Source of the DNA: a virus
DNA: 64,000 nucleotides
IMG/VR virus record: IMGVR_UViG_3300046703_000100
Span: 27,573-91,572 of that record
Strand: one strand, 5' to 3'
The position numbers were made by a program, and so were the translations under genes. The notes under the pieces are model-generated. The model made no database searches. It was not told the origin of the DNA and saw only the letters and a list, made by a program, of their open reading frames with translations. Positions within the stretch are counted from its first letter, which is position 1. Every line of letters begins with the position of its first letter. Below, in pieces: positions 27,266 to 55,615 of the stretch.

Positions 27266-27694
27266 CTAAAAACTTGTAATTAAAAATTTTACATTATATT
27301 CCAAACTTTCGGTTCTCATACTCGTTCCAAAAGTTATATCTTCAGTTCTTATTACTGCAAAACTCCAAGAAGTAATCCATTGACCTCCGCCAGAAGCATT
27401 AGGGTCGTAATACTGGAGTGTAAGAGTAGCTGGTAAAGTAGTTATATTAGTTCGCAATTCACCTTGTTTTGTCATTAAATCTACATAACCATCGTTTGAC
27501 CATAATATTCCTTTAACATCTATGTCTACAGATTTCTTACCCCCTTTGATGACAATACTTCCATCTGCTCTTATACCTCTTATAACATTAGCTTTCATTC
27601 CAGGAACAGGGTCAGAAATATTTTGAACATATGGTAAATCATGGTCTCCACCACCGTCATTAAATGTAAGTTTTACAGAATAATCTTGATACAT
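27266..27694 (-). CDS. putative distal tail protein (Dit-like)
   Basis: Immediately downstream of the tape measure; ~140 aa, beta-rich. Confidence 0.5.
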   Translation of the reverse strand: MYQDYSVKLTFNDGGGDHDLPYVQNISDPVPGMKANVIRGIRADGSIVIKGGKKSVDIDVKGILWSNDGYVDLMTKQGELRTNITTLPATLTLQYYDPNASGGGQWITSWSFAVIRTEDITFGTSMRTESLEYNVKFLITSF

Positions 27695-44520: not shown

Positions 44521-45174
44521 CTATACTCCTATAGTTATAAGTTCAGTAAAATAAGAATACCAATAATCTCTATTAGCATTTACTTCTGTATTACATTTAC
44601 TGCAAAGAGAAATTAGATTTTCGGGTAAACAATTCTCTTTACAATAATCTATATGATGAATTGATAAAACCTTATCTAAATCTTTAAGTTCTTGTTCTTC
44701 ATTCTTACCACATTTTTGGCATTTATGATTATCTCTATCACGAATTAAATCCTTGAGCTGTTTATTAAACTCAATAGTATAGGGAAATCTGCTCAAGCCA
44801 CCTAACCATTGAGGATGATTCTCTGGATTCTTATATTCTTCTTTACGAGCACAGGATTTACAACGGGTGTTAGGTTTTTCATCTCCATGATTTTTATAAC
44901 AAGCATTATTATTTAATTCTTTTTTACAATCAATACAAAATTTTTTACGAGATTCTAATCCACCTTGCCAAACAGGACTTAATTTTCCAGATTTACCAAA
45001 TTGATGATTTAATTTACCTTGTTGAAAACATTCTCGGCAATATTTTGCTCGTCTATCAATTTTTTGACCACAAATGCAATAATTTATTTCATGTGTCGCT
45101 TCAATAATATAGCATTTACGACATAATTTTACATGTTTTGCACTAAGTTTTTTACCACACTTACATTTATGCAT
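44521..45174 (-). CDS. HNH endonuclease (paralogue 2, HNN variant)
   Basis: IRDRDNHKCQKC...HHIDYCKENC..ENLISLCSKCN. Confidence 0.88.
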   Translation of the reverse strand: MHKCKCGKKLSAKHVKLCRKCYIIEATHEINYCICGQKIDRRAKYCRECFQQGKLNHQFGKSGKLSPVWQGGLESRKKFCIDCKKELNNNACYKNHGDEKPNTRCKSCARKEEYKNPENHPQWLGGLSRFPYTIEFNKQLKDLIRDRDNHKCQKCGKNEEQELKDLDKVLSIHHIDYCKENCLPENLISLCSKCNTEVNANRDYWYSYFTELITIGV

Positions 45175-45233: not shown

Positions 45234-46223
45234 TTAGTTCGTAGGAATATTACTATCCGCAACGACTACACCTGTTAAATCTGCTGAACATATAGCTTTG
45301 GTGTTGGTTATGGCGAAAATTATCGATTCGTAGCCAAAGACACCGTAGGCTAAAGTATTTGTTCCACCAACGTTTACAGGTACTGGATTAACAACGATAG
45401 CTCTCTGAGCTTCATTGACTTCCGCACCCATCAACTTTGCTATCTCAGGCGTAATCTGCCTTCTAACGAACTTAATCGGCTTGCCTTCTGCTATTCTTGA
45501 ATCTTTAGCAACCATTATACACTTAAATGGGTCTAACATATAAGCAGTGGCTTCTGTATCTGTAGCATCAACGGAAACTTTTCCGTATATCTTTATAACT
45601 TCTATGCCAAGCTCTTTCAGCTTCGCAGGTAGAGTTACATTATATCTGAAAGCCTGTACATTCGACTTATCATAAAGGTCGATGGCTTCTTTTACTCTTG
45701 AACCAGCCAATAGAACATAATCTGTACCATAATCCTCAAGGGCGTGTTTCATACCTATGAGCACATCGTACAAATCCGCACCTGTCTTCGCATAAGCGAA
45801 GGGCAGTTCCGCACCTGGCATATAAGTTGCAGTGCCAGCTACGATTGCATCCAATATAATCTTCATCTCTCTCTTATCCATACCACGTGTGATGGATTCT
45901 TTACGTCTTGAGAGGATGTCTGTATCAGGTGATGCCAATACAGCGTCAAGCAACACATATTCCAACTTCGAGTTCAAACCCTTAAACGTTATCTCTACGA
46001 TTCCGAGTGGGTCTCTCTTTTTGGGTACGATTGCTCCGGTGCTTACGTCTACATCAAGAATAACATCAGCGTACTGTTCCAAAGCGTTAAACTTCCATAT
46101 CTTCTCTCCAGGCTTCGCAACGAAAGTATCTGCAATTGCCTGTAGTTCCACTGGAACTGGAAGCTGGATGTTAATCGGCTGTCCTATTAAGGACGCTATC
46201 TCTAATACCATATCTCTATCCAT
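45234..46223 (-). CDS. major capsid protein (HK97 fold expected)
   Basis: 329 aa directly after the protease/scaffold; long spine-helix-like DILSRR...MDKRE..IILDAI; GC-richer codon usage; AGGAG RBS. Confidence 0.8.
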   Translation of the reverse strand: MDRDMVLEIASLIGQPINIQLPVPVELQAIADTFVAKPGEKIWKFNALEQYADVILDVDVSTGAIVPKKRDPLGIVEITFKGLNSKLEYVLLDAVLASPDTDILSRRKESITRGMDKREMKIILDAIVAGTATYMPGAELPFAYAKTGADLYDVLIGMKHALEDYGTDYVLLAGSRVKEAIDLYDKSNVQAFRYNVTLPAKLKELGIEVIKIYGKVSVDATDTEATAYMLDPFKCIMVAKDSRIAEGKPIKFVRRQITPEIAKLMGAEVNEAQRAIVVNPVPVNVGGTNTLAYGVFGYESIIFAITNTKAICSADLTGVVVADSNIPTN

Positions 46224-46328
46224 TTTAAATCTCCTATTACTATTTATTTTTTTTTCTTATAAATAAATCCGTATCTTTATTGACTTATTTATATTTTTTA
46301 CTATATCTTTTTATTACCGTATCTTCTA

Positions 46329-49300
46329 TTAAGTCTTTCTTGCTTTTCTTCCAAATGCTTTAGCGTCTATTTCTGCTCTAACGTCTTTGTTAGGGTCGCC
46401 AGCTTCTTCGGATTTAGAACCAATAACTTTACCTTTTGTCGCAACTTCAAGATTTGCTTTTTCTAATTTCAAATCTGCAAATTTTGTATTATCTAATATA
46501 TCTCTATCAGATATTTTGCTTGCTATTTCAAGACCAACTTCTCTCTGACGCTTTCCTATTTCTTCAGCATTAACTTTATAAAATTCAATCTGAGAAGCCA
46601 TTTCTCTATGCATTTCACAAGCTTTTTCTTTTGATATTTTTCTGGCTTCTTGAAGTTTCTTATGAGCTTTTTTGACAGATGCAACATGACGAGCGATACA
46701 AGCTTTTGCTTGAGCTAATTTTTCAGCAAGTTTATCAGAATCATCACCTGGCAATGGAACTTGGTATCCTTTTAATTCAGCTATATTACGATTCATATCG
46801 GGTTTACCAGTTTTCAAGTCAGCTACAGTTCTATCCATATCGGGTTTTCCTGTCTTTAAATCTGCAACAGTTCTATCAATGTCAGGCTTACCTGATTTTA
46901 GGTCTGCAACTGTTCTATCCATATCTGGTTTACCGCTCTTCAAATCCGCTACTGTCCTATCTATGTCGGGTTTGCCAGTTTTTAAATCAGCTACATCGGT
47001 ATGTTTTTCATCTTTCACCGGCTTTTTAAGGTCAGCATTTTCGGTATTTGCAATATTTCTATTCATATCTGGTTTGCCTCCTTTCAAGTCGGCTTTTTCT
47101 TTACTTCCTCTTACTCCTAATATCGAAGTAGGCTCATCAGAGGCTTTGTTTTTATTTTCTTTTGTTTCTTCTTTTTCCTCTTTAATAGTTTCTAATTTCT
47201 CTTCTTCTTCTGCCATCTTTTGTTCTTTAAGTGTTTTATCCTGTAAGAATAAAGCATCATCATGAGATTTTATAAGTTTTTCTGCTACTTTTTCAGCATT
47301 TTTATCATCCATAACATCTGTATCATAAGAGTCTGCATCGGCTTTATTCATATTCATATGCATATTAAGTTCTTTTGCTCTACGAAGAACTTTTGCTCTT
47401 ACTGATTCAGGAGAAACTCCTAATGATTTTAATCCAGCTTTCGGAGCTTCTTGTCCAAGACGAGACAATGCATTACGCACATGTGCAGGGTCTTTTATAG
47501 GATATTTACGAATTGTTTTTCCATCTTTATGAATAACAACTGCAAAATCCTTATCTGATAAGCTTTGTCTTTGCTCATATGTTAGTTTCTTTGCTACTTC
47601 GAATCCATCTTCATAACTATCGTCAATTGATGCCTCGACAGGAGATTCTATCTCGGCAGACGGCTTTACATCTTTCTTTTCCATGTCTTTTTCTCCTTCT
47701 GTTTCTATTATATTAGCAGATTTATCTATTAACTCGTCTGCTGTCGAGATTAGTTCTTTTTCACTGACTATAAAAATACCTTCTATGCCAGCTACTTCTA
47801 AATTATATAAATTAAGACCTGAAGGATTTTCGTTTATTATTTTCCCTTCAAGTACGATTTCTCCACCATTTGAAAGTGGATAGTTAAATTCTACTAAACC
47901 AGCTTTATGAACATAATTATCTATCTTATTAATCACAGTTGGGTCTGAATTAACTCTTGGAGTTGTTACTGTATTAAGGTCTGTCGGTGCTCCATATTTA
48001 GTTTCATAATCGGCTTTTGTCATTTCGTTAATAGAAGAAATTCTACGAACCATTTCATTAGTAATGTCATGACTAAATCTTAAATTACATTCGCCACATG
48101 ATACTTCGTATTTATTATTCTTAGAAGTACCTGCATAACCTACTCTATGACCACATTGTGCACAAGGTGCCGTTCCTATATGTAGAAAATGTAAATTAGA
48201 CATTACTGTAGCTTTTGGGTCTTCTTGATAACTAATAACATAAGCTCTTTGACAAGACATACATTTTATATCAGCATTTTTATTATCTGATTTTAGAATT
48301 CTCCAATTACGAGATGAACATGCTGGACAAGACATTTTAAAATCTATATGTTGAGGAGGATATTTTGTCTCACCTTTTTCATTTAATATTGCTTTACATT
48401 CTGGACATTTAATTTCGTTTGCTGTAACAAAAGGTTTATCAATTATGTAAGAACAATTCGCACATTTTACTGATGAAAAAGGAGTTGAAATATTATCTAA
48501 TAAACCACCGCATTTCATACAAGCATACGTATAAGTATTTGTACCATCTCCAACAACTTTCTTATTAGGTATACCTTTATAAGCACATTTAGGACATTCT
48601 ACTTCCTTATCCATAGACGCTACTGAATGAGGAGGATTATTTCTTGGTTTAACACCAACTACATCTTTATTCTCTGGTTTCTCTTTATCAGATATTGCAA
48701 AAGGAGCGACCAATACTGGTTTAGTTCCTACACTATCTTTACCTGATACTGTTATAGGAGAAGGAAGTTGTACATTAATCGGTTCTCCGATAATTTTTGC
48801 TTCTTCTGGTTCTTGGCATTTACCGCATTTACGACAAATTGTTTCGCCATGAATAATCATTTCTTCACAAGGGTGAAAATGTTTAGAAGCGTATACCATA
48901 TCTTCTTCGTTAATTTTTGCCATCTCAAGAACATGAGCATCAGCAAATGCTGGTTTAGTTTTAAATAAAATTGCTCCACCAGCTATTTCCATTTCTGTTA
49001 ATAGATATGTGCCATCGCTCAAATATTTACGTTTATTCTTGGCACACCAGATTTCGTAACTACATGTTAATTTTCCTGCTCTAAATAATGCTTGAGCTTG
49101 TTTCCATTCGTCTGCAAAATTTGATTTAAATATAATGCCATATGCTATTACTGATTCATCTTTTACTATATATTTATAATCAATATAATACCCTATAACT
49201 CTTGACCTATTGTGGTCAATGTCGATACTTTTTCCACAAATTCCAGGTAATGCACGTAGAAGAATCTTCTTAGGTAATCGAGCACGATTTCCGTTAGCTT

Positions 49301-49505
49301 TATCAGCAAAAGTATATACCATTTTTATGCCAGCAAGGTCTCTACTATCTTGAAGAAGTATCCCTCTTGCTTTAGCGATTTGAAATAATTCATTCTCTTC
49401 TTTCGAACCTTCTTCTAATAATTGAAGAGAAACGGATTCTTCATAATCAGTTAAAAATTCTTGACATTGTATAGAAGTTATAAATTCTTCTTTTATTTCT
49501 GGCAT
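46329..49505 (-). CDS. prohead protease/scaffold polyprotein with Zn ribbons, a DUF6582-like domain and 14-aa repeats
   Basis: N-terminal N.N, IDIDH, IG, G.I, CSYE, GGAIL..KPA (assemblin-like protease); LSDKDFA..RKYPI.D.AHVRNALSR; C-terminal coiled coil; lies between portal and capsid. Confidence 0.8.
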   Translation of the reverse strand: MPEIKEEFITSIQCQEFLTDYEESVSLQLLEEGSKEENELFQIAKARGILLQDSRDLAGIKMVYTFADKANGNRARLPKKILLRALPGICGKSIDIDHNRSRVIGYYIDYKYIVKDESVIAYGIIFKSNFADEWKQAQALFRAGKLTCSYEIWCAKNKRKYLSDGTYLLTEMEIAGGAILFKTKPAFADAHVLEMAKINEEDMVYASKHFHPCEEMIIHGETICRKCGKCQEPEEAKIIGEPINVQLPSPITVSGKDSVGTKPVLVAPFAISDKEKPENKDVVGVKPRNNPPHSVASMDKEVECPKCAYKGIPNKKVVGDGTNTYTYACMKCGGLLDNISTPFSSVKCANCSYIIDKPFVTANEIKCPECKAILNEKGETKYPPQHIDFKMSCPACSSRNWRILKSDNKNADIKCMSCQRAYVISYQEDPKATVMSNLHFLHIGTAPCAQCGHRVGYAGTSKNNKYEVSCGECNLRFSHDITNEMVRRISSINEMTKADYETKYGAPTDLNTVTTPRVNSDPTVINKIDNYVHKAGLVEFNYPLSNGGEIVLEGKIINENPSGLNLYNLEVAGIEGIFIVSEKELISTADELIDKSANIIETEGEKDMEKKDVKPSAEIESPVEASIDDSYEDGFEVAKKLTYEQRQSLSDKDFAVVIHKDGKTIRKYPIKDPAHVRNALSRLGQEAPKAGLKSLGVSPESVRAKVLRRAKELNMHMNMNKADADSYDTDVMDDKNAEKVAEKLIKSHDDALFLQDKTLKEQKMAEEEEKLETIKEEKEETKENKNKASDEPTSILGVRGSKEKADLKGGKPDMNRNIANTENADLKKPVKDEKHTDVADLKTGKPDIDRTVADLKSGKPDMDRTVADLKSGKPDIDRTVADLKTGKPDMDRTVADLKTGKPDMNRNIAELKGYQVPLPGDDSDKLAEKLAQAKACIARHVASVKKAHKKLQEARKISKEKACEMHREMASQIEFYKVNAEEIGKRQREVGLEIASKISDRDILDNTKFADLKLEKANLEVATKGKVIGSKSEEAGDPNKDVRAEIDAKAFGRKARKT
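46775..47100 (-). repeat. 42-nt / 14-aa tandem repeat ADLK[TS]GKPD[IM]DRTV
   Basis: Five tandem copies plus one displaced copy (ADLKGGKPDMNRNI). Confidence 0.95.
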
Positions 49506-50098
49506 AAATATAAAGCCTCCATTACTTTACTAAAATAAGCAAACCAATAGTCTCTATTATAATTTGCTAAACAATTACATTTATTACAAAGAGTAATTAA
49601 ATTTTCTTCTTTGCAATTATTTTTACTATAATCTATATGATGAATCGATAATTTTTTATTAATTTCTTTTATTTGTTGGTCTTCAATTTTGAAACAATAT
49701 TGACATTCGTGATGGTCTCGGTCTCTTATTTGTTCTTTTAAATTATCGTTAAATTCTATCGAATAGAGATTATTCCAAATACCGCCTTGCCAATTGGGGT
49801 TATCTTCGCCAATATTTTTACCAATATGTTTTTCACTTATTTGTTGTTTGGTTTCTTTCGTATGATGTTTACCATACATACCGTTATTTTCTGGTTTAGA
49901 TAATCTTTTTATTGCTCTATTTTTAATATCGATTATCAATTGTGGATTTTCTTTAAAAGCATGTTTTGTAGCACAAGAAGGACATCTTCCTCCACCAAAT
50001 CTTGCTGTTTTTCTACATATGTTCTCTCCACAATCGGTACAATGACCTTTGTGCATTATTTCATATTGTTTTGAATATTCTTTACGATATTTATTCAT
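49493..50098 (-). CDS. HNH endonuclease (paralogue 3, NUMOD3, HNN variant)
   Basis: MYGKHHTKETKQQIS; IRDRDHHECQYC...HHIDY...LITLCNKCN. Confidence 0.88.
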   Translation of the reverse strand: MNKYRKEYSKQYEIMHKGHCTDCGENICRKTARFGGGRCPSCATKHAFKENPQLIIDIKNRAIKRLSKPENNGMYGKHHTKETKQQISEKHIGKNIGEDNPNWQGGIWNNLYSIEFNDNLKEQIRDRDHHECQYCFKIEDQQIKEINKKLSIHHIDYSKNNCKEENLITLCNKCNCLANYNRDYWFAYFSKVMEALYLCQK

Positions 50099-50100
50099 AT

Positions 50101-50340
50101 TTATAATTTATCTACTTCTTCAGAACCTTTAGTATAATATTTCTCTTCTTCGGGGTCTAACATAATTAATAAAGAAATAAATTCTCCAGCATGTACACGT
50201 TCTTCATTCGCTATAGATATTAAAACTTTCTTTGCAAGTTCATCATCACATTGTTCAGCAAGGGTTGTATAATCGGCAATTGCTCCGTATTCTGCTGTAA
50301 TCATTTTACGAATCTGACGAATAAGTTCTTGTTTAGTCAT
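50101..50340 (-). CDS. short ferritin-like (rubrerythrin/EncFtn-type) protein
   Basis: AEYGAIADY and IANEERVHAGEF di-iron motifs in a two-helix half bundle. Confidence 0.85.
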   Translation of the reverse strand: MTKQELIRQIRKMITAEYGAIADYTTLAEQCDDELAKKVLISIANEERVHAGEFISLLIMLDPEEEKYYTKGSEEVDKL

Positions 50341-52358
50341 TATTTTTTACCTTTGAATTTTCCTGCCAAACGTTCCCAAAGAGAAAGATTGCTTTTTGCT
50401 AATCCTGATTTTCGTACTGCACTATACGCAACCCGAAAGGCATATTGTTCAACTGCTTTAATAGGTTTTCCTTTAGCCATCATATATCTAAACGCTCCAT
50501 TAAATGCTCCCCGAAAAACTTTTTGTTTCTCTTCTGACATTTTCTTTATAGCAGGAGGTAGTGAATTTAAACTTGTGTATGGTGCAGTAACTAAATCATT
50601 CTCTGAAGCAGTCTTGGCATATGCTGGATGATTTTCTCCGACCCATGTTTTTGCTTCTGATTGTTTCCAAGTATTTTTATCGAATAAATAAGATTGTATT
50701 GTTGTTGTCTTTTGACCTTTTATTTTCCCTATAATTGCTTTAATGTGTTTTGAAGGTGAAAGAACTATTGTTCTAAAAGATTTATCATCAAATTGTTTCG
50801 GGTCTTTTTGACGATAGCGAAGATAATTTTCTGTAATTCTTACTCCTGATTTTCTTGCTAATTCTAATTCATCTGAATCAAAATTAACTATCTCTGCTGT
50901 AATTACATCATTATCTTCTTCTTCAAATGCACTATAATTCCAATTCTGTGTTTCTGTTCCTGTTCGGTCTTGAAGAGTTTCTTTGCCATCTTTATTAGTA
51001 GCTGTTGGAGGAATAACCTCTGTATTTGTTCCTTGTATATCTATTCCTTTTCCTTCTTGATTTTGAGTAATAGGAGGATACATTGTAATTGAATCACCAG
51101 ATTTTTCTTCTTTTTCTCTTCGGAATTTCTCGGTTTCATAATCTCCTTCACCAACTAATTCTACAAAAGTTCTCTTAGATAACAAACCTCTATCATAAAG
51201 AGTTCTTAATTTCTCTTTAAATTCGTCAGTCATAAAAGAACGAACTGGGGAAGATGATATATATAATTTTGATGCGTTATATTTAATGTGCGAATCGTTT
51301 TTCTCGGCAATAAGATAAAGAAGGGTATTTAAAATATGCTTAAAATCTTCAATAGCTGAATTAATTTCTTGAATAAACGCTTTAGGATTTAGGACAGATT
51401 CTCGACGATTAGAAACTACGCCCTGAACTATATCTATAAAACCAAGACCTGAAAGAATATTTCTTTCGGCTTGTTCGAAGAGTTCTGCCTGAAATAATGT
51501 CTTTAAATCTGGAATTAAATGTTTTATCTCTTCATCAAAATTTGTAACTCTCATCGGTGTCTTAACCTGTTTATCATCCAAATGCATTACACGAAGATTC
51601 TCATACAACTGTTGGAATTGATTTACAACTTCTTGTAATTCAGGTTGTGAATAAGTCTTCTGTTGATTTAAAGCAAGACCTTCAGTACCTTTCTGCACTA
51701 ATAGCATATAAGGAATAATCTGGTCAAGAACTTCTATTTCTTTTTTCTTTAACGATTCTATAATTTTATAATTATAATAAACACCACGCTTAATTGTATA
51801 AGGAATAGGATATTTATCAAACCATCTACAATAAGGACGATTAACTATATGAGTGCCTGGCGTAATTTTATTCTCAGAATCTTTACCTATATAATAAGAC
51901 CATGAATCTACTGTAAGAACATCAGTGTTTTTATCTTTTTCTAAAGCATGAATTGAACCACCATCTACAAAAATCATTTGGTCAGGAAGAAGAAGATTTG
52001 TAGTAGGGTCTTTTTTCCAATGAGCTATCTGAAGAACACAGAATGAAGAGTATTTCCACCTCTCCTGCATATACTCTTTTGCTAATGCTTTAATACCCAT
52101 TGGAATTGTTCCATAGGGAGCATTAATGGTATTGAGCCAATTATTTAATACTTCATCAAGTTGGTCATTCTCAGCTTCGATACGGTAAGAAACTGAAGCA
52201 GATTGCACTGCAAAATCGGTAAGCACATCAACCAACCCTGTCATATCATTACGAAACATACTCGCTACTACCTCACATTGATTGTGGAAATCTGCCGGAA
52301 CTACGATTTTCCGGAGGAGGAGCGATAATATATACGTCATAATCATGCTTGAATCCAC
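50340..52358 (-). CDS. portal protein with C-terminal accessory domains including ChaB
   Basis: Position between TerL and protease; helical portal-like region to ~aa 430; C-terminal PY...LP..I......Q..F..AFN.A...E..A.RVA..AV (ChaB). Confidence 0.78.
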   Translation of the reverse strand: MDSSMIMTYILSLLLRKIVVPADFHNQCEVVASMFRNDMTGLVDVLTDFAVQSASVSYRIEAENDQLDEVLNNWLNTINAPYGTIPMGIKALAKEYMQERWKYSSFCVLQIAHWKKDPTTNLLLPDQMIFVDGGSIHALEKDKNTDVLTVDSWSYYIGKDSENKITPGTHIVNRPYCRWFDKYPIPYTIKRGVYYNYKIIESLKKKEIEVLDQIIPYMLLVQKGTEGLALNQQKTYSQPELQEVVNQFQQLYENLRVMHLDDKQVKTPMRVTNFDEEIKHLIPDLKTLFQAELFEQAERNILSGLGFIDIVQGVVSNRRESVLNPKAFIQEINSAIEDFKHILNTLLYLIAEKNDSHIKYNASKLYISSSPVRSFMTDEFKEKLRTLYDRGLLSKRTFVELVGEGDYETEKFRREKEEKSGDSITMYPPITQNQEGKGIDIQGTNTEVIPPTATNKDGKETLQDRTGTETQNWNYSAFEEEDNDVITAEIVNFDSDELELARKSGVRITENYLRYRQKDPKQFDDKSFRTIVLSPSKHIKAIIGKIKGQKTTTIQSYLFDKNTWKQSEAKTWVGENHPAYAKTASENDLVTAPYTSLNSLPPAIKKMSEEKQKVFRGAFNGAFRYMMAKGKPIKAVEQYAFRVAYSAVRKSGLAKSNLSLWERLAGKFKGKK

Positions 52359-52374: not shown

Positions 52375-53148
52375 TTAATTGCACAATAAATTTTTTTGAA
52401 TTAAATTTTGAAATAATTTTATCCAATTTTCCCGATTATAATTAACTTTAATATTACAAGTATTACATAAACTAATAAGATTTTCTTCTTTACAATTTTG
52501 TTTATTGTAATCAATATGATGAACATCTAAAACACGACCACGTAAAACTTTATAATCAACTTCTGCTATACCACACTTTTGACAAATATGATTATCTCGT
52601 TGTCGAATGGCTTCTTTTAAAGATTCGTTAAATTCTTTAGTATAAGGAAGAAAACTACGTCCGTCAACATAAGAAGGATGGTTTTCTGGATTCGCTAATC
52701 GTATTTTGGTACTACAAGAATGACATAATTCTGTACCGTATAATCCATTTAGTAAACTAATTTTTTTTCCGCAATCTTTACAATAGTATTGTTTTAAACA
52801 TTGTCCTGTTTTGTAATTAGGATTATTTTTACCTGTTAACTTTTGTCTATTTTTAGCAATATTCTTAGCATTGCAAACACGACATCTGGTCGCACGATTG
52901 TTTATTTTCATATCACAATCAATACAATATTTTTCTCCACAACATTTACCATGTTTATAACCAGGAGCATTTTTGCCTTTATAACAATCTGGATGGTCTG
53001 CATGATATTGTTTTAGTCCACAAGAATGACATCTACCACTACGATATAAAGCAGTTGAAAAATGAATCTTTTTCTGGCAGTCTATACAAAAATATTCTTT
53101 TTGTGTTATACCGCCTTTCCAATTTGGATTTTCTTTGTTCTTATTCAT
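52375..53148 (-). CDS. HNH endonuclease (paralogue 4, HNN variant) with three YCxDC zinc knuckles
   Basis: IRQRDNHICQKC...HHIDYNK.NC.EENLISLCNTCN. Confidence 0.88.
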   Translation of the reverse strand: MNKNKENPNWKGGITQKEYFCIDCQKKIHFSTALYRSGRCHSCGLKQYHADHPDCYKGKNAPGYKHGKCCGEKYCIDCDMKINNRATRCRVCNAKNIAKNRQKLTGKNNPNYKTGQCLKQYYCKDCGKKISLLNGLYGTELCHSCSTKIRLANPENHPSYVDGRSFLPYTKEFNESLKEAIRQRDNHICQKCGIAEVDYKVLRGRVLDVHHIDYNKQNCKEENLISLCNTCNIKVNYNRENWIKLFQNLIQKNLLCN

Positions 53149-53800: not shown

Positions 53801-55615
53801 TTATCCTTGAAATAAAATTGCTAATCTTCTAATTTCTTTATTAATCCATCCAGCGTTTTCTACATCTCCTCGACTATCGTTTTCCATCCATTTAGCATTT
53901 AGATAATTTGCTACATATTTATTATATTCTTCTTTAGAACACTTAATTAATTTTCGATTTAAAATTGCTGACTCTATTATTAATTTATCAACAGAATTTA
54001 CGGTTTTAGTTTCGAAATTCATCGCACCTAATCCACCATTACTTATTCCTAATTTTGGGGTGGAGTTGAAATCTTTCTTTGTCCAAACTGCTATCGCAAA
54101 AACTTTAAAAGCGTCAAACACGTGGTCGCCGTCTTCTGATACGCAAGCATAGACCGTTCTACTGCCGACTGTTCGGGCAATTACACTGTTTATTTGTTTC
54201 TCTAATTTGAAATCGTTTGGCATTAATATTCTGCCTTCATACAAAAGACTTTTTAAATGCCTAACGCCCCACTCTGACATAAATTCATCAAGTGGTATTG
54301 GTTTTCCATTTTCTAATATTACTTTACCGTTATCGTCTTTCTTCCAATCAACACCAATTTTTTCTTGACCTGAATAATATACTAAACTATTTTTTGGATA
54401 TTTCTTTTCAAGACGACGATATATTGCTCGACCAGTTCCATCTCCACAATCCAACCCAATTACGTTTGCTTGTAGTTTCTGGATTAACCAATCGAATATT
54501 TCAAATTGTTCTTCGTCTTTTAATGAATATAGTGCAATTCTATATAGATAATGATATTTATTTCCTACTTCACTTAAAATTACAAGTTCGCTTCCACCAG
54601 CACCATCTCCTATATCACTTGCTATAAATATTCTGTCAGCATTTTTAGGTCTTTCAACTACAATCAAATTTTTAAAGTATGTGAAAGATTCTTTTTTAAT
54701 TTCAAAAACTTTTAATTCTGTTTTGCTGTCTATATAAGGTTCTATACGAGAAATATCAAACTCTGATATTCCGTCTTCGCAAACCTCACCGTTAACAAAT
54801 ATTCTATAATTAAGCGAATCAGTACCGCCGTATTCTTTTTGTCTATTCTTTTCTTCTTTATCATCAAATGTTGGATTAACTGATTGAGGCAAATTTAATA
54901 TTTTATTTTTATCTTCTGGATTGTAGAATGATTTTCCTGCTGGTGTAAATCTTGTAAAATTTGTCATACCACTAAGTCTAAGTACCGCACCGAGTTCCGA
55001 CAAAGAATCTTTTCTTTTGTCATAAGCTTTGTCAGTCTCTAAAGATGCTTCTTCAATCCATAGTTTACGAACATGTTTACCGAACCATTGTCTGCCAGCA
55101 TCTTTCGATGCGACATTCATATTAATTCCTTGAAGCAACCAGCCATTCTTTGCTTCCAACTCATATTTTGGGGAAGCTCTGAATCTTCTTTTGTACATAT
55201 GCAAAATCGGATTAAATGAAATAGCTCTCGTTACAACGTCTAATATATCCTGAAGGTGGATTGCGTCGGCAGAACTAAATCCACACCAACTATTTGCGTC
55301 GTGTAACATAGATAAGCATATATCTACTTTTTCAGTTACGAGAGATTTACCAAATTTTCTTCCGCCGTAATTATATAAATCTCCAGCCCCTTTTCGAAGT
55401 TCAAAACATTCTTTGGGGGAAAGACCTTTGACTTCGAAATCTATAAAAGGTTCTGACGATAACATCGGATATTGATACATTCTCAATAAACTAAGATTCT
55501 CTTTAAACTCACTAAGATTATCAAGACAACTAAAAAGACACTCGCTCATTGCAATAGGGGTATGCCAGTTTTGCATGAACAAAAGTTCTTTTTCTGTAAG
55601 CTTCTCTGTTATCAT
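53801..55615 (-). CDS. terL: terminase large subunit
   Basis: Walker A GGRKFGKS, Walker B LWIEEA, nuclease acidic residues ASDIG, GLD.G.G.G, DHVFDAF. Confidence 0.88.
   Translation of the reverse strand: MITEKLTEKELLFMQNWHTPIAMSECLFSCLDNLSEFKENLSLLRMYQYPMLSSEPFIDFEVKGLSPKECFELRKGAGDLYNYGGRKFGKSLVTEKVDICLSMLHDANSWCGFSSADAIHLQDILDVVTRAISFNPILHMYKRRFRASPKYELEAKNGWLLQGINMNVASKDAGRQWFGKHVRKLWIEEASLETDKAYDKRKDSLSELGAVLRLSGMTNFTRFTPAGKSFYNPEDKNKILNLPQSVNPTFDDKEEKNRQKEYGGTDSLNYRIFVNGEVCEDGISEFDISRIEPYIDSKTELKVFEIKKESFTYFKNLIVVERPKNADRIFIASDIGDGAGGSELVILSEVGNKYHYLYRIALYSLKDEEQFEIFDWLIQKLQANVIGLDCGDGTGRAIYRRLEKKYPKNSLVYYSGQEKIGVDWKKDDNGKVILENGKPIPLDEFMSEWGVRHLKSLLYEGRILMPNDFKLEKQINSVIARTVGSRTVYACVSEDGDHVFDAFKVFAIAVWTKKDFNSTPKLGISNGGLGAMNFETKTVNSVDKLIIESAILNRKLIKCSKEEYNKYVANYLNAKWMENDSRGDVENAGWINKEIRRLAILFQG

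Follow-up and report, generated by a model that had tools for sequence, protein, structure and literature searches.

The final 64 kb of a single 91,572-bp contig from an uncultured tailed phage (IMG/VR record IMGVR_UViG_3300046703_000100, positions 27,573 to 91,572; this whole stretch of 64,000 nucleotides is called the window here) contain a head module in which one tetrapeptide, L-E-V/I-A, recurs in three proteins: the portal protein, a long polyprotein that combines a protease with a scaffold, and the presumed major capsid protein (Table 1). The order terminase, portal, protease/scaffold and capsid is found in the window and in 21 related IMG/VR loci, with the protease/scaffold gene placed between the portal and capsid genes, as is the case for capsid maturation proteases of the assemblin/T4 gp21/HK97 gp4 fold. 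A sequence-only reading of this DNA had pointed to the recurring peptides, and to looser ones closing a set of tandem repeats, as candidate cut sites of the phage's own head protease, and all of the listed peptides are indeed present at the places it gave in the capsid protein, the protease/scaffold protein, the portal and the repeats.

Table 1. Genes, domains and motif sites of the head module in the window, with one gene family of related loci (loci are numbered with the prefix L; pLDDT, predicted local distance difference test; aa, amino acids)
Feature	Coordinates	Strand	Basis or remark
Head module	45.2-55.6 kb	-	gene content and order
Terminase large subunit	53801-55615	-	
161-aa gene	between terminase and HNH gene 52375-53148	-	
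HNH/NUMOD3-type endonuclease gene	52375-53148	-	
Portal gene, 672 aa	50340-52358	-	
Portal core, residues 1-432	51063..52358	-	Foldseek
Portal LELA 498-501, then RK	50856..50867	-	low-confidence acidic linker, just before folded domain
Portal extra beta/alpha domain, residues 504-587	50598..50849	-	pLDDT 82-90
Portal LVTA 589-592, then PY	50583..50594	-	predicted linker
ChaB-like domain, residues 593-669	50352..50582	-	PF06150 19.7 bits, below the cut-off of 27
Rubrerythrin/ferritin-like gene, 79 aa	50101-50340	-	PF02915, E 7e-6
HNH/NUMOD3-type endonuclease gene (middle)	49493-50098	-	
Protease/scaffold gene, 1058 aa	46329-49505	-	
Protease/Zn-ribbon/DUF6582-like/repeat/scaffold polyprotein, 1058 aa	46329..49505	-	AlphaFold2 model
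FQIA 41-44, weakened N-terminal site	49374..49385	-	
Protease core, residues 45-196, His98 and Ser149	48918..49373	-	pLDDT, structural match, invariance
LEMA 193-196, then K; end of protease domain, release-site-like	48918..48929	-	
MVYA 203-206, then Ser; second L-x-x-A element, 10 residues downstream of LEMA	48888..48899	-	
CxxC zinc-ribbon array, residues 300-505	47991..48608	-	pLDDT 77-95, beta hairpins
LEVA 569-572, then Gly	47790..47801	-	inside disordered 508-636
FEVA 635-638, then KK	47592..47603	-	step from disorder to folded domain near 640
DUF6582-like domain and long helix, residues 639-783	47157..47591	-	pLDDT 77-93
Lys/Asp-rich tandem 14-residue repeats, disordered	46776..47102	-	pLDDT <50
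Helical scaffold region and C-terminal helix 1039-1051	46332..46775	-	long helices 923-1024
LEIA 992-995, then Ser; 63 residues from C-terminus	46521..46532	-	helix break
LEVA 1019-1022, then Thr; 36 residues from C-terminus, maturation-site-like	46440..46451	-	
Presumed capsid gene, 329 aa	45234-46223	-	
Presumed major capsid protein, 329 aa	45234..46223	-	directly after protease/scaffold gene; 372 homologues
Capsid motif LEIA, residues 7-10, then Ser11	46194..46205	-	
HNH/NUMOD3-type endonuclease gene (third)	44521-45174	-	
187-205-aa repeat-protein genes of related loci	L001:5969-6550, L004:7100-7714, L010:7406-7969, L018:7390-8007, L019:7612-8175, L020:7491-8060		

The recurrence was quantified with a strict form of the motif, [LF]E[VIML]A, with expected counts taken from composition-preserving shuffles. 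Across the whole 91,572-bp genome, the three head proteins (2059 residues) contain seven strict motifs against 0.30 expected, whereas the other 26,346 residues contain two against 2.6, in agreement with the enrichment that the sequence-only reading had anticipated. The protease/scaffold protein alone holds five copies where 0.15 are expected, a number reached in none of 5000 shuffles. The capsid protein and the portal carry one strict site each (p ~0.07 for each taken alone), and support for these two sites comes from their positional conservation in relatives. When the same pattern was counted, unchanged, in 20 related loci, an excess was found in each class of head protein, with 7 observed against 1.26 expected in the portal, 18 against 2.33 in the protease/scaffold protein and 10 against 0.95 in the capsid protein (35 against 4.5 when pooled, a 5.6- to 10.5-fold enrichment by class), as compared with 9 against 7.89 in all other proteins of these loci. 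Motif sites of relatives do not count as independent events, since their ancestry is shared; the tetrapeptide is kept in proteins that are otherwise 30-60% identical.

The identity of the putative protease was addressed with an AlphaFold2 model of the 1058-residue protein, built on an alignment of 59 sequences, in which the N-terminal domain reaches a pLDDT above 90 at residues 41-190. When residues 50-198 were compared structurally with phage and herpesvirus proteases (VIA-align), the best match was T4 gp21 (5jbl; Z 12.2, root-mean-square deviation 2.6 over 125 residues), and six herpesvirus proteases, those of varicella-zoster virus (VZV), pseudorabies virus (PrV), herpes simplex virus, human cytomegalovirus, Epstein-Barr virus as well as Kaposi's sarcoma-associated herpesvirus, matched with Z of 9-11.4. 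A Foldseek search with the full 1058-residue model as query likewise returned an assemblin/gp21-fold match (probability ~1.0, E ~2e-3). H98, S149 and E151 are invariant in 59/59 sequences, H98 and S149 also in 21 domain-only sequences, and NIDH, the motif that contains the histidine, is aligned with its counterpart in the VZV protease by a weak profile match (E 2). The N-terminal domain, as modelled, thus has the fold of T4 gp21 and herpesvirus assemblin, and His98 and Ser149 are likely to be the catalytic pair of a putative serine protease. The sequence-only reading had placed a protease at the start of this large open reading frame (ORF) and had suggested a mutant in the serine of a CSYE motif as a control; this serine is Ser149, and both the fold and its invariance in relatives bear the assignment out.

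Downstream of the protease, the zinc-ribbon array displays conserved cysteines at 348, 351, 367, 370, 448, 451, 470 and 473 and weak Zn-ribbon Pfam matches, and is followed by about 130 disordered residues (508-636, pLDDT ~40). The domain beyond this stretch scores 23 bits against DUF6582 (PF20223) when isolated, below the cut-off of 27.3, as do the counterparts in relatives P0129 and P0133 at a similar level, and it matches phrog_16160 with an E-value of 4.8e-6. The tandem 14-residue repeats are present in 2-9 copies in close relatives, and a C-terminal block of the scaffold is conserved. Relatives of the whole protein range from 512 to 1132 residues and vary as to zinc-ribbon number, presence of the DUF6582-like domain and repeat content. 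Within the same gene, Met608 and Met814 are encoded by in-frame ATG codons, each with a good Shine-Dalgarno sequence ahead of it (GAAGGAG and AAAGGAGG), which could give nested, protease-less products of 451 and 245 residues; judged from these internal signals, a nested scaffold-only product is hinted at. Nested products that supply extra scaffold are found in herpesviruses (UL26.5) and in phage lambda (Nu3).

Motif sites are distributed along the entire protease/scaffold protein. The best conserved one in this protein closes the protease domain: the motif occurs at the 193-196 column in 45/59 relatives, and in the model it forms the last strand (191-195), with disorder afterwards at 202-208, so that the expected site at the end of the protease domain finds support in both alignment and structure. 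Variants at this position (VLSMS, VLAIA, VLQLA and VLALA) keep Leu and Ala/Ser and lose Glu. The second element shortly downstream (MVYA) reads L-V-Y-A in relatives, with positions 203 (Leu) and 206 (Ala) at least 90% conserved, and upstream of the protease core, the column of the weakened FQIA site holds [FILM]E[IV]A followed by K or R in 18/59 relatives. Farther along, LEVA 569-572 is conserved in the four closest relatives, the FEVA site that directly precedes the DUF6582-like domain has the motif in seven relatives, and the LEIA 992-995 column has it in four. The last site, LEVA 1019-1022, lies at the end of a helix (1006-1024) and is followed by a low-confidence stretch. In many relatives, the motif is found 31-50 or about 95 residues from the C-terminus, its position shifting, and others have none under the pattern used; the scaffold-tail sites shift yet persist, as LEVA in one clade and as LETA in another. 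The sequence-only reading had also regarded the ends of the tandem repeats, RTVA and RNIA, as forms of the motif, a proposal that does not hold up well, as both lack the P4 Leu and the Glu. The repeat units of close relatives end in RELA, PELA, REIA or RNIA, so the repeat ends are ambiguous and were not retained as cut sites in the window.

The 329-residue protein encoded directly after the protease/scaffold gene is presumed to be the major capsid protein from its gene position, size and ubiquity. It has no match among 50,697 phage records, and the same was true of two distant relatives; nor were matches found in Pfam, PHROG or the PDB (by sequence, by profile against the PDB, and in PHROGs with 29 homologues), or in Pfam with 10 distant capsid matches drawn from 1.84 billion representatives. 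The motif follows a leader of 7-24 residues, variable in both length and sequence, in a broad form in 115/117 full-length capsid homologues, as the sequence-only reading would predict from the L7-E-I-A10 that precedes S11 in the window. Lys comes next at 63 of these 115 sites, Gln at 21, Ser at 17 and Arg at 9. Among more distant capsid representatives, 47/85 carry the motif, compared with 8/256 control N-termini, and in some of them it comes after helical leaders of 20-38 residues.

In the portal, the fold of the core was recognized by Foldseek against the portals of lambda, phage 812, T4, HK97, T5, Mu and HFTV1 (E 2e-7 to 1e-4 over ~450-520 columns). An acidic disordered linker (433-503; low confidence at 471-503) follows, near the end of which the LELA position matches [DE][DE]xLE[LIV][AS] in about 35/120 homologues. 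The second site marks the junction with the ChaB-like domain, which in 111 homologues reads [DE]-L-[VEI]-[TGI]-[AS] followed by PY, with Leu in 106/111, Ala or Ser in 111/111 and Glu at the second position in 39/111. A precomputed PF06150 match is available for about 50/120 portal homologues, several of which were named ChaB by their sources. The interval from the core to ChaB is empty in some relatives and is filled in others by the 85-residue domain, by a zinc ribbon or by a histidine phosphatase of 160 residues (PF00300, E 1e-30 or better). The latter is found in portals P0166 (residues 514-672) and P0196 (294-453), which are 76-78% identical to the window portal, where it lies between the core and the 85-residue domain and is flanked by LELA-K and LEEA-S. 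The proposal that relatives would keep the motif while exchanging the modules beside it is therefore supported, with a histidine phosphatase, a zinc ribbon or no insert at all occupying the same interval. The extra domain at residues 504-587 resembles, in a structure search of the ESM Atlas (template modelling score 0.63-0.76), free phage proteins of ~90 residues, and also a domain that occurs in fusion with Peptidase_S78 or DUF2213 prohead proteases, where DUF6582 is sometimes present too; as a lead only, this domain may represent an accessory module that recurs among head proteases.

The expectation that the sites would fall in linkers is borne out in part. Of the eight sites on the list, five are placed by the predicted structures in low-confidence linkers or at the edges of domains, among them 498-501 and 589-592 of the portal and 569-572 and 635-638 of the polyprotein, all four in low-pLDDT linkers beside folded domains, whereas scaffold sites 992-995 and 1019-1022 are helical. 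Free-standing genes for ChaB, the 85-residue domain or the DUF6582-like domain were found neither in the genome nor in 25 related loci, and the borders of these modules are therefore not marked by gene fission. One contig of a metagenome-assembled genome (MAG) encodes portal, ChaB, protease, zinc ribbons and scaffold in a single ORF of 1168 residues (L023:6454-9960). An 86% identical metagenome relative (L026:4558-8106) has two genes 18 nucleotides apart, so the fusion was attributed to a small deletion or an assembly error in one contig and was not counted as strong evidence for a natural polyprotein.

Taken together, conservation and modelling suggest, with a probability of roughly 65%, that the L-E-V/I-A motif is the recognition and cut site of the phage's own head protease. 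The signal is best written as Leu(P4)-Glu(P3)-Val/Ile/Leu/Met(P2)-Ala/Ser(P1), in which Leu and Ala/Ser are constant, P3 prefers Glu, and P2 is aliphatic or Thr. If this is correct, the full-length protease/scaffold protein would co-assemble with the capsid protein and the portal into a prohead, within which the protease would cut itself from the scaffold at residue 196 (perhaps 206), as at the herpesvirus release site. Cuts 36 and 63 residues from the C-terminus would free the scaffold from the shell, as at the herpesvirus maturation site, the 10-residue capsid leader would be removed by the protease, and the modules would be severed at linker sites in the scaffold and in the C-terminal extension of the portal. 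The fold, the invariant catalytic-type residues, the enrichment, the positional conservation and the location of sites at module borders are observed here, whereas cleavage itself, the bond that would be cut and the fate of the fragments are inferred.

That a single motif can direct the processing of several head proteins is known from P2, T4, SPN3US/phiKZ and herpesviruses; fusions of protease and scaffold, and processing of the portal, are likewise established. For P2, cutting of the capsid protein, of the portal and of gpO itself is attributed to gpO, a fusion of protease and scaffold (PMC7552001). The arrangement described here resembles that of P2 gpO/gpN/gpQ in that an N-terminal protease and a C-terminal scaffold are combined in one protein, and in that capsid protein, protease/scaffold and portal would all be processed, with removal of a short N-terminal capsid segment that is documented for P2 (PMC7552001) and predicted from sequence in the present phage. 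However, gpO comprises 284 residues and has no inserts, whereas 1058 residues are found here, with the zinc-ribbon array, the DUF6582-like domain and the repeats located between protease and scaffold. The portal of the present phage additionally has C-terminal accessory domains, the motif differs, and no sequence similarity between P2 gpO and the phage protease/scaffold protein was found.

In herpesviruses, pUL26 carries a release site and a maturation site, both having Ala at P1; the PrV sites are YLQA-T and VQA-S, with a hydrophobic residue upstream, and the maturation site, which lies ~25-37 residues before the C-terminus, serves to detach the scaffold from the capsid protein (PMC4498786). 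The phage protein and pUL26/pUL80a have the protease fold in common; in both, the protease precedes the scaffold and a conserved site closes the protease domain. Another candidate site, tens of residues from the scaffold C-terminus, is seen in the window and in many relatives, and Ala/Ser as the last motif residue would agree with the herpesvirus P1. The phage protein differs in that P3 is usually Glu, in that the residue after the motif is mostly Lys at the capsid sites, with Ser a minority, and in that the protease domain is minimal and of gp21 size, without the C-terminal helices of assemblin. T4 gp21, SPN3US gp245 and phiKZ gp175 offer the best fold match (T4 gp21) and the precedent of one short motif spread across several head proteins; A-x-E is the cut site in eight SPN3US head proteins, with the portal and the protease's own C-terminus among them, and processing is tied to how internal or ejected proteins are loaded (PMC5694885). 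Removal of their own C-terminus is a feature of these proteases, and the giant-phage portal is processed as well, with loss of an N-terminal propeptide, whereas here C-terminal domains would be lost. These enzymes cut after Glu in L/I-x-E or A/S-x-E, in contrast to the constant Leu and Ala/Ser of the present motif. Moreover, T4 cargo proteins are encoded by separate genes and carry N-terminal capsid-targeting peptides, while the modules considered here are built into the portal C-terminus and the protease/scaffold protein. What appears to be new is the inferred L-E-V/I-A specificity with a small P1 residue in a gp21-size enzyme, the way in which accessory domains sit at the C-terminal end of the portal and midway along the protease/scaffold protein in place of separate genes with targeting peptides, and the lineage itself.

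Several observations weigh against cleavage at the motif. A related element absent from the earlier list, MEIA at 172-175, lies buried as a strand within the protease core and is conserved in 25/59 relatives, which means that the tetrapeptide can be purely structural and that not every copy is a cut site. Sites 992-995 and 1019-1022 lie within confidently predicted helices, albeit at a break and at an end, and the motif classes themselves were picked once the sequence had been inspected. In about half of the portal homologues and in some protease/scaffold relatives, only looser L-x-x-A forms are present and the strict motif is missing. The residues after the capsid motif are conserved to the same degree as the motif, so they could all be part of a structural N-arm. 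An Ala-Pro bond is unusual for a serine protease, and the ChaB junction would require such a bond to be cut. Most of these points also favor the view that the motif is an uncut assembly or docking element, that is, a short amphipathic helix or a strand cap by which scaffold, portal extension and capsid N-arm would touch the shell or one another: two scaffold copies are helical, an equally conserved segment follows the capsid motif, the MEIA copy is buried, and the ChaB junction is a poor protease site. Nevertheless, the motif appears in three structural settings (the end of a strand, disordered linkers and the ends of helices), it flanks inserted modules and closes the protease domain, and its position drifts in the scaffold tail. 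Because of this variety of settings, bracketing and drift, a linear recognition signal fits better than a fixed structural contact, and a docking function is considered unlikely.

Another alternative retains a cleavage function for the motif and shifts the scissile bond to its interior, after Glu (L-E, then V/I-A), in the style of T4 gp21, phiKZ and SPN3US. This would be in keeping with T4 gp21 as the best structural match, with the invariant Glu of the strict motif, with avoidance of the Ala-Pro bond, and with the cutting after Glu by the SPN3US and T4 proteases (PMC5694885). However, before ChaB only Ala/Ser is universal, with Glu absent from 72/111 junctions, and the variants at the protease end lose Glu as well. 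The T4-type L/I-x-E pattern is not followed either, as Leu directly precedes Glu here, while the T4 rule has it two residues before. A cut after Glu is thus rather improbable, because Glu is dispensable at the best-conserved sites. Finally, a chance or composition effect could be imagined for helical scaffold proteins rich in Glu, Ala, Leu and Val, and would be compatible with the single strict copies of capsid and portal, but it is very hard to reconcile with the shuffling results for the protease/scaffold protein, with counts at expectation in the other proteins of the genome and of its relatives, and with the positional conservation of the sites among divergent homologues.

The remainder of the head module contains several genes of more limited distribution. 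The three HNH/NUMOD3-type genes are paralogues with several CxxC pairs each and are scattered among the head genes, the middle one overlapping the start of the protease/scaffold gene by 13 nucleotides; homologues were found in only 7-10/21 related loci, as expected of mobile homing-endonuclease genes. The start codon of the rubrerythrin-like gene overlaps the portal stop codon; homologues of this gene were found in 0/21 related loci, and its product lacks the L-E-V/I-A motif. Across L001-L021, anything from 0 to 8 genes, some of them for large proteins of 475-891 residues, separate the portal gene from the protease/scaffold gene, which makes this interval a hot spot of variation. Six of these relatives have, just upstream of the protease/scaffold gene, a gene for a protein of 187-205 residues with degenerate short repeats, G-[ST/R]-K-x-[FIL], and a conserved KDITNIL-x-ALD tail, to which the window has no counterpart.

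With regard to its distribution, the lineage has no cultured member and is common in metagenomes, in which 372 homologues of the 329-residue protein and 350 of the portal were found. Neither Pfam nor PHROG yielded a family match for the terminase, the portal core or the capsid protein, and sequence searches of the PDB gave nothing useful for the capsid or the protease/scaffold protein. Contigs of the lineage have been binned in MAGs labelled Promethearchaeota (twice), Helarchaeota, Woesearchaeota, Planctomycetales and Melioribacteraceae, and the ribosome-binding sites of the genes are of the AAGGAG type. An Asgard-archaeal host was considered and set aside in view of the mixed labels and these ribosome-binding sites.

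A further, speculative idea concerns the modules themselves. By analogy with the internal proteins of T4 and the ejection proteins of giant phages, head genes might double as carriers, with the portal C-terminus and the protease/scaffold protein loading swappable ChaB, histidine phosphatase, zinc-ribbon and DUF6582-like modules that would be freed at L-E-V/I-A joints and might enter the host along with the DNA, acting there as early effectors or as DNA-handling proteins; this extension of the cleavage hypothesis is regarded as doubtful. Should the sites turn out to be uncut, the tetrapeptide would be a conserved assembly motif of an ordinary kind. Genuine cut sites, by contrast, would provide a ready maturation map for a widespread phage lineage without a cultured member, and a small-P1 specificity would join the phage side of the assemblin/gp21 fold, nearer to the herpesvirus rule than to that of T4. 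Such an arrangement would point to the loading of proteins into capsids by fusion to portal or scaffold instead of by an N-terminal targeting peptide, a mode of loading that could also serve the engineering of capsid cargo.

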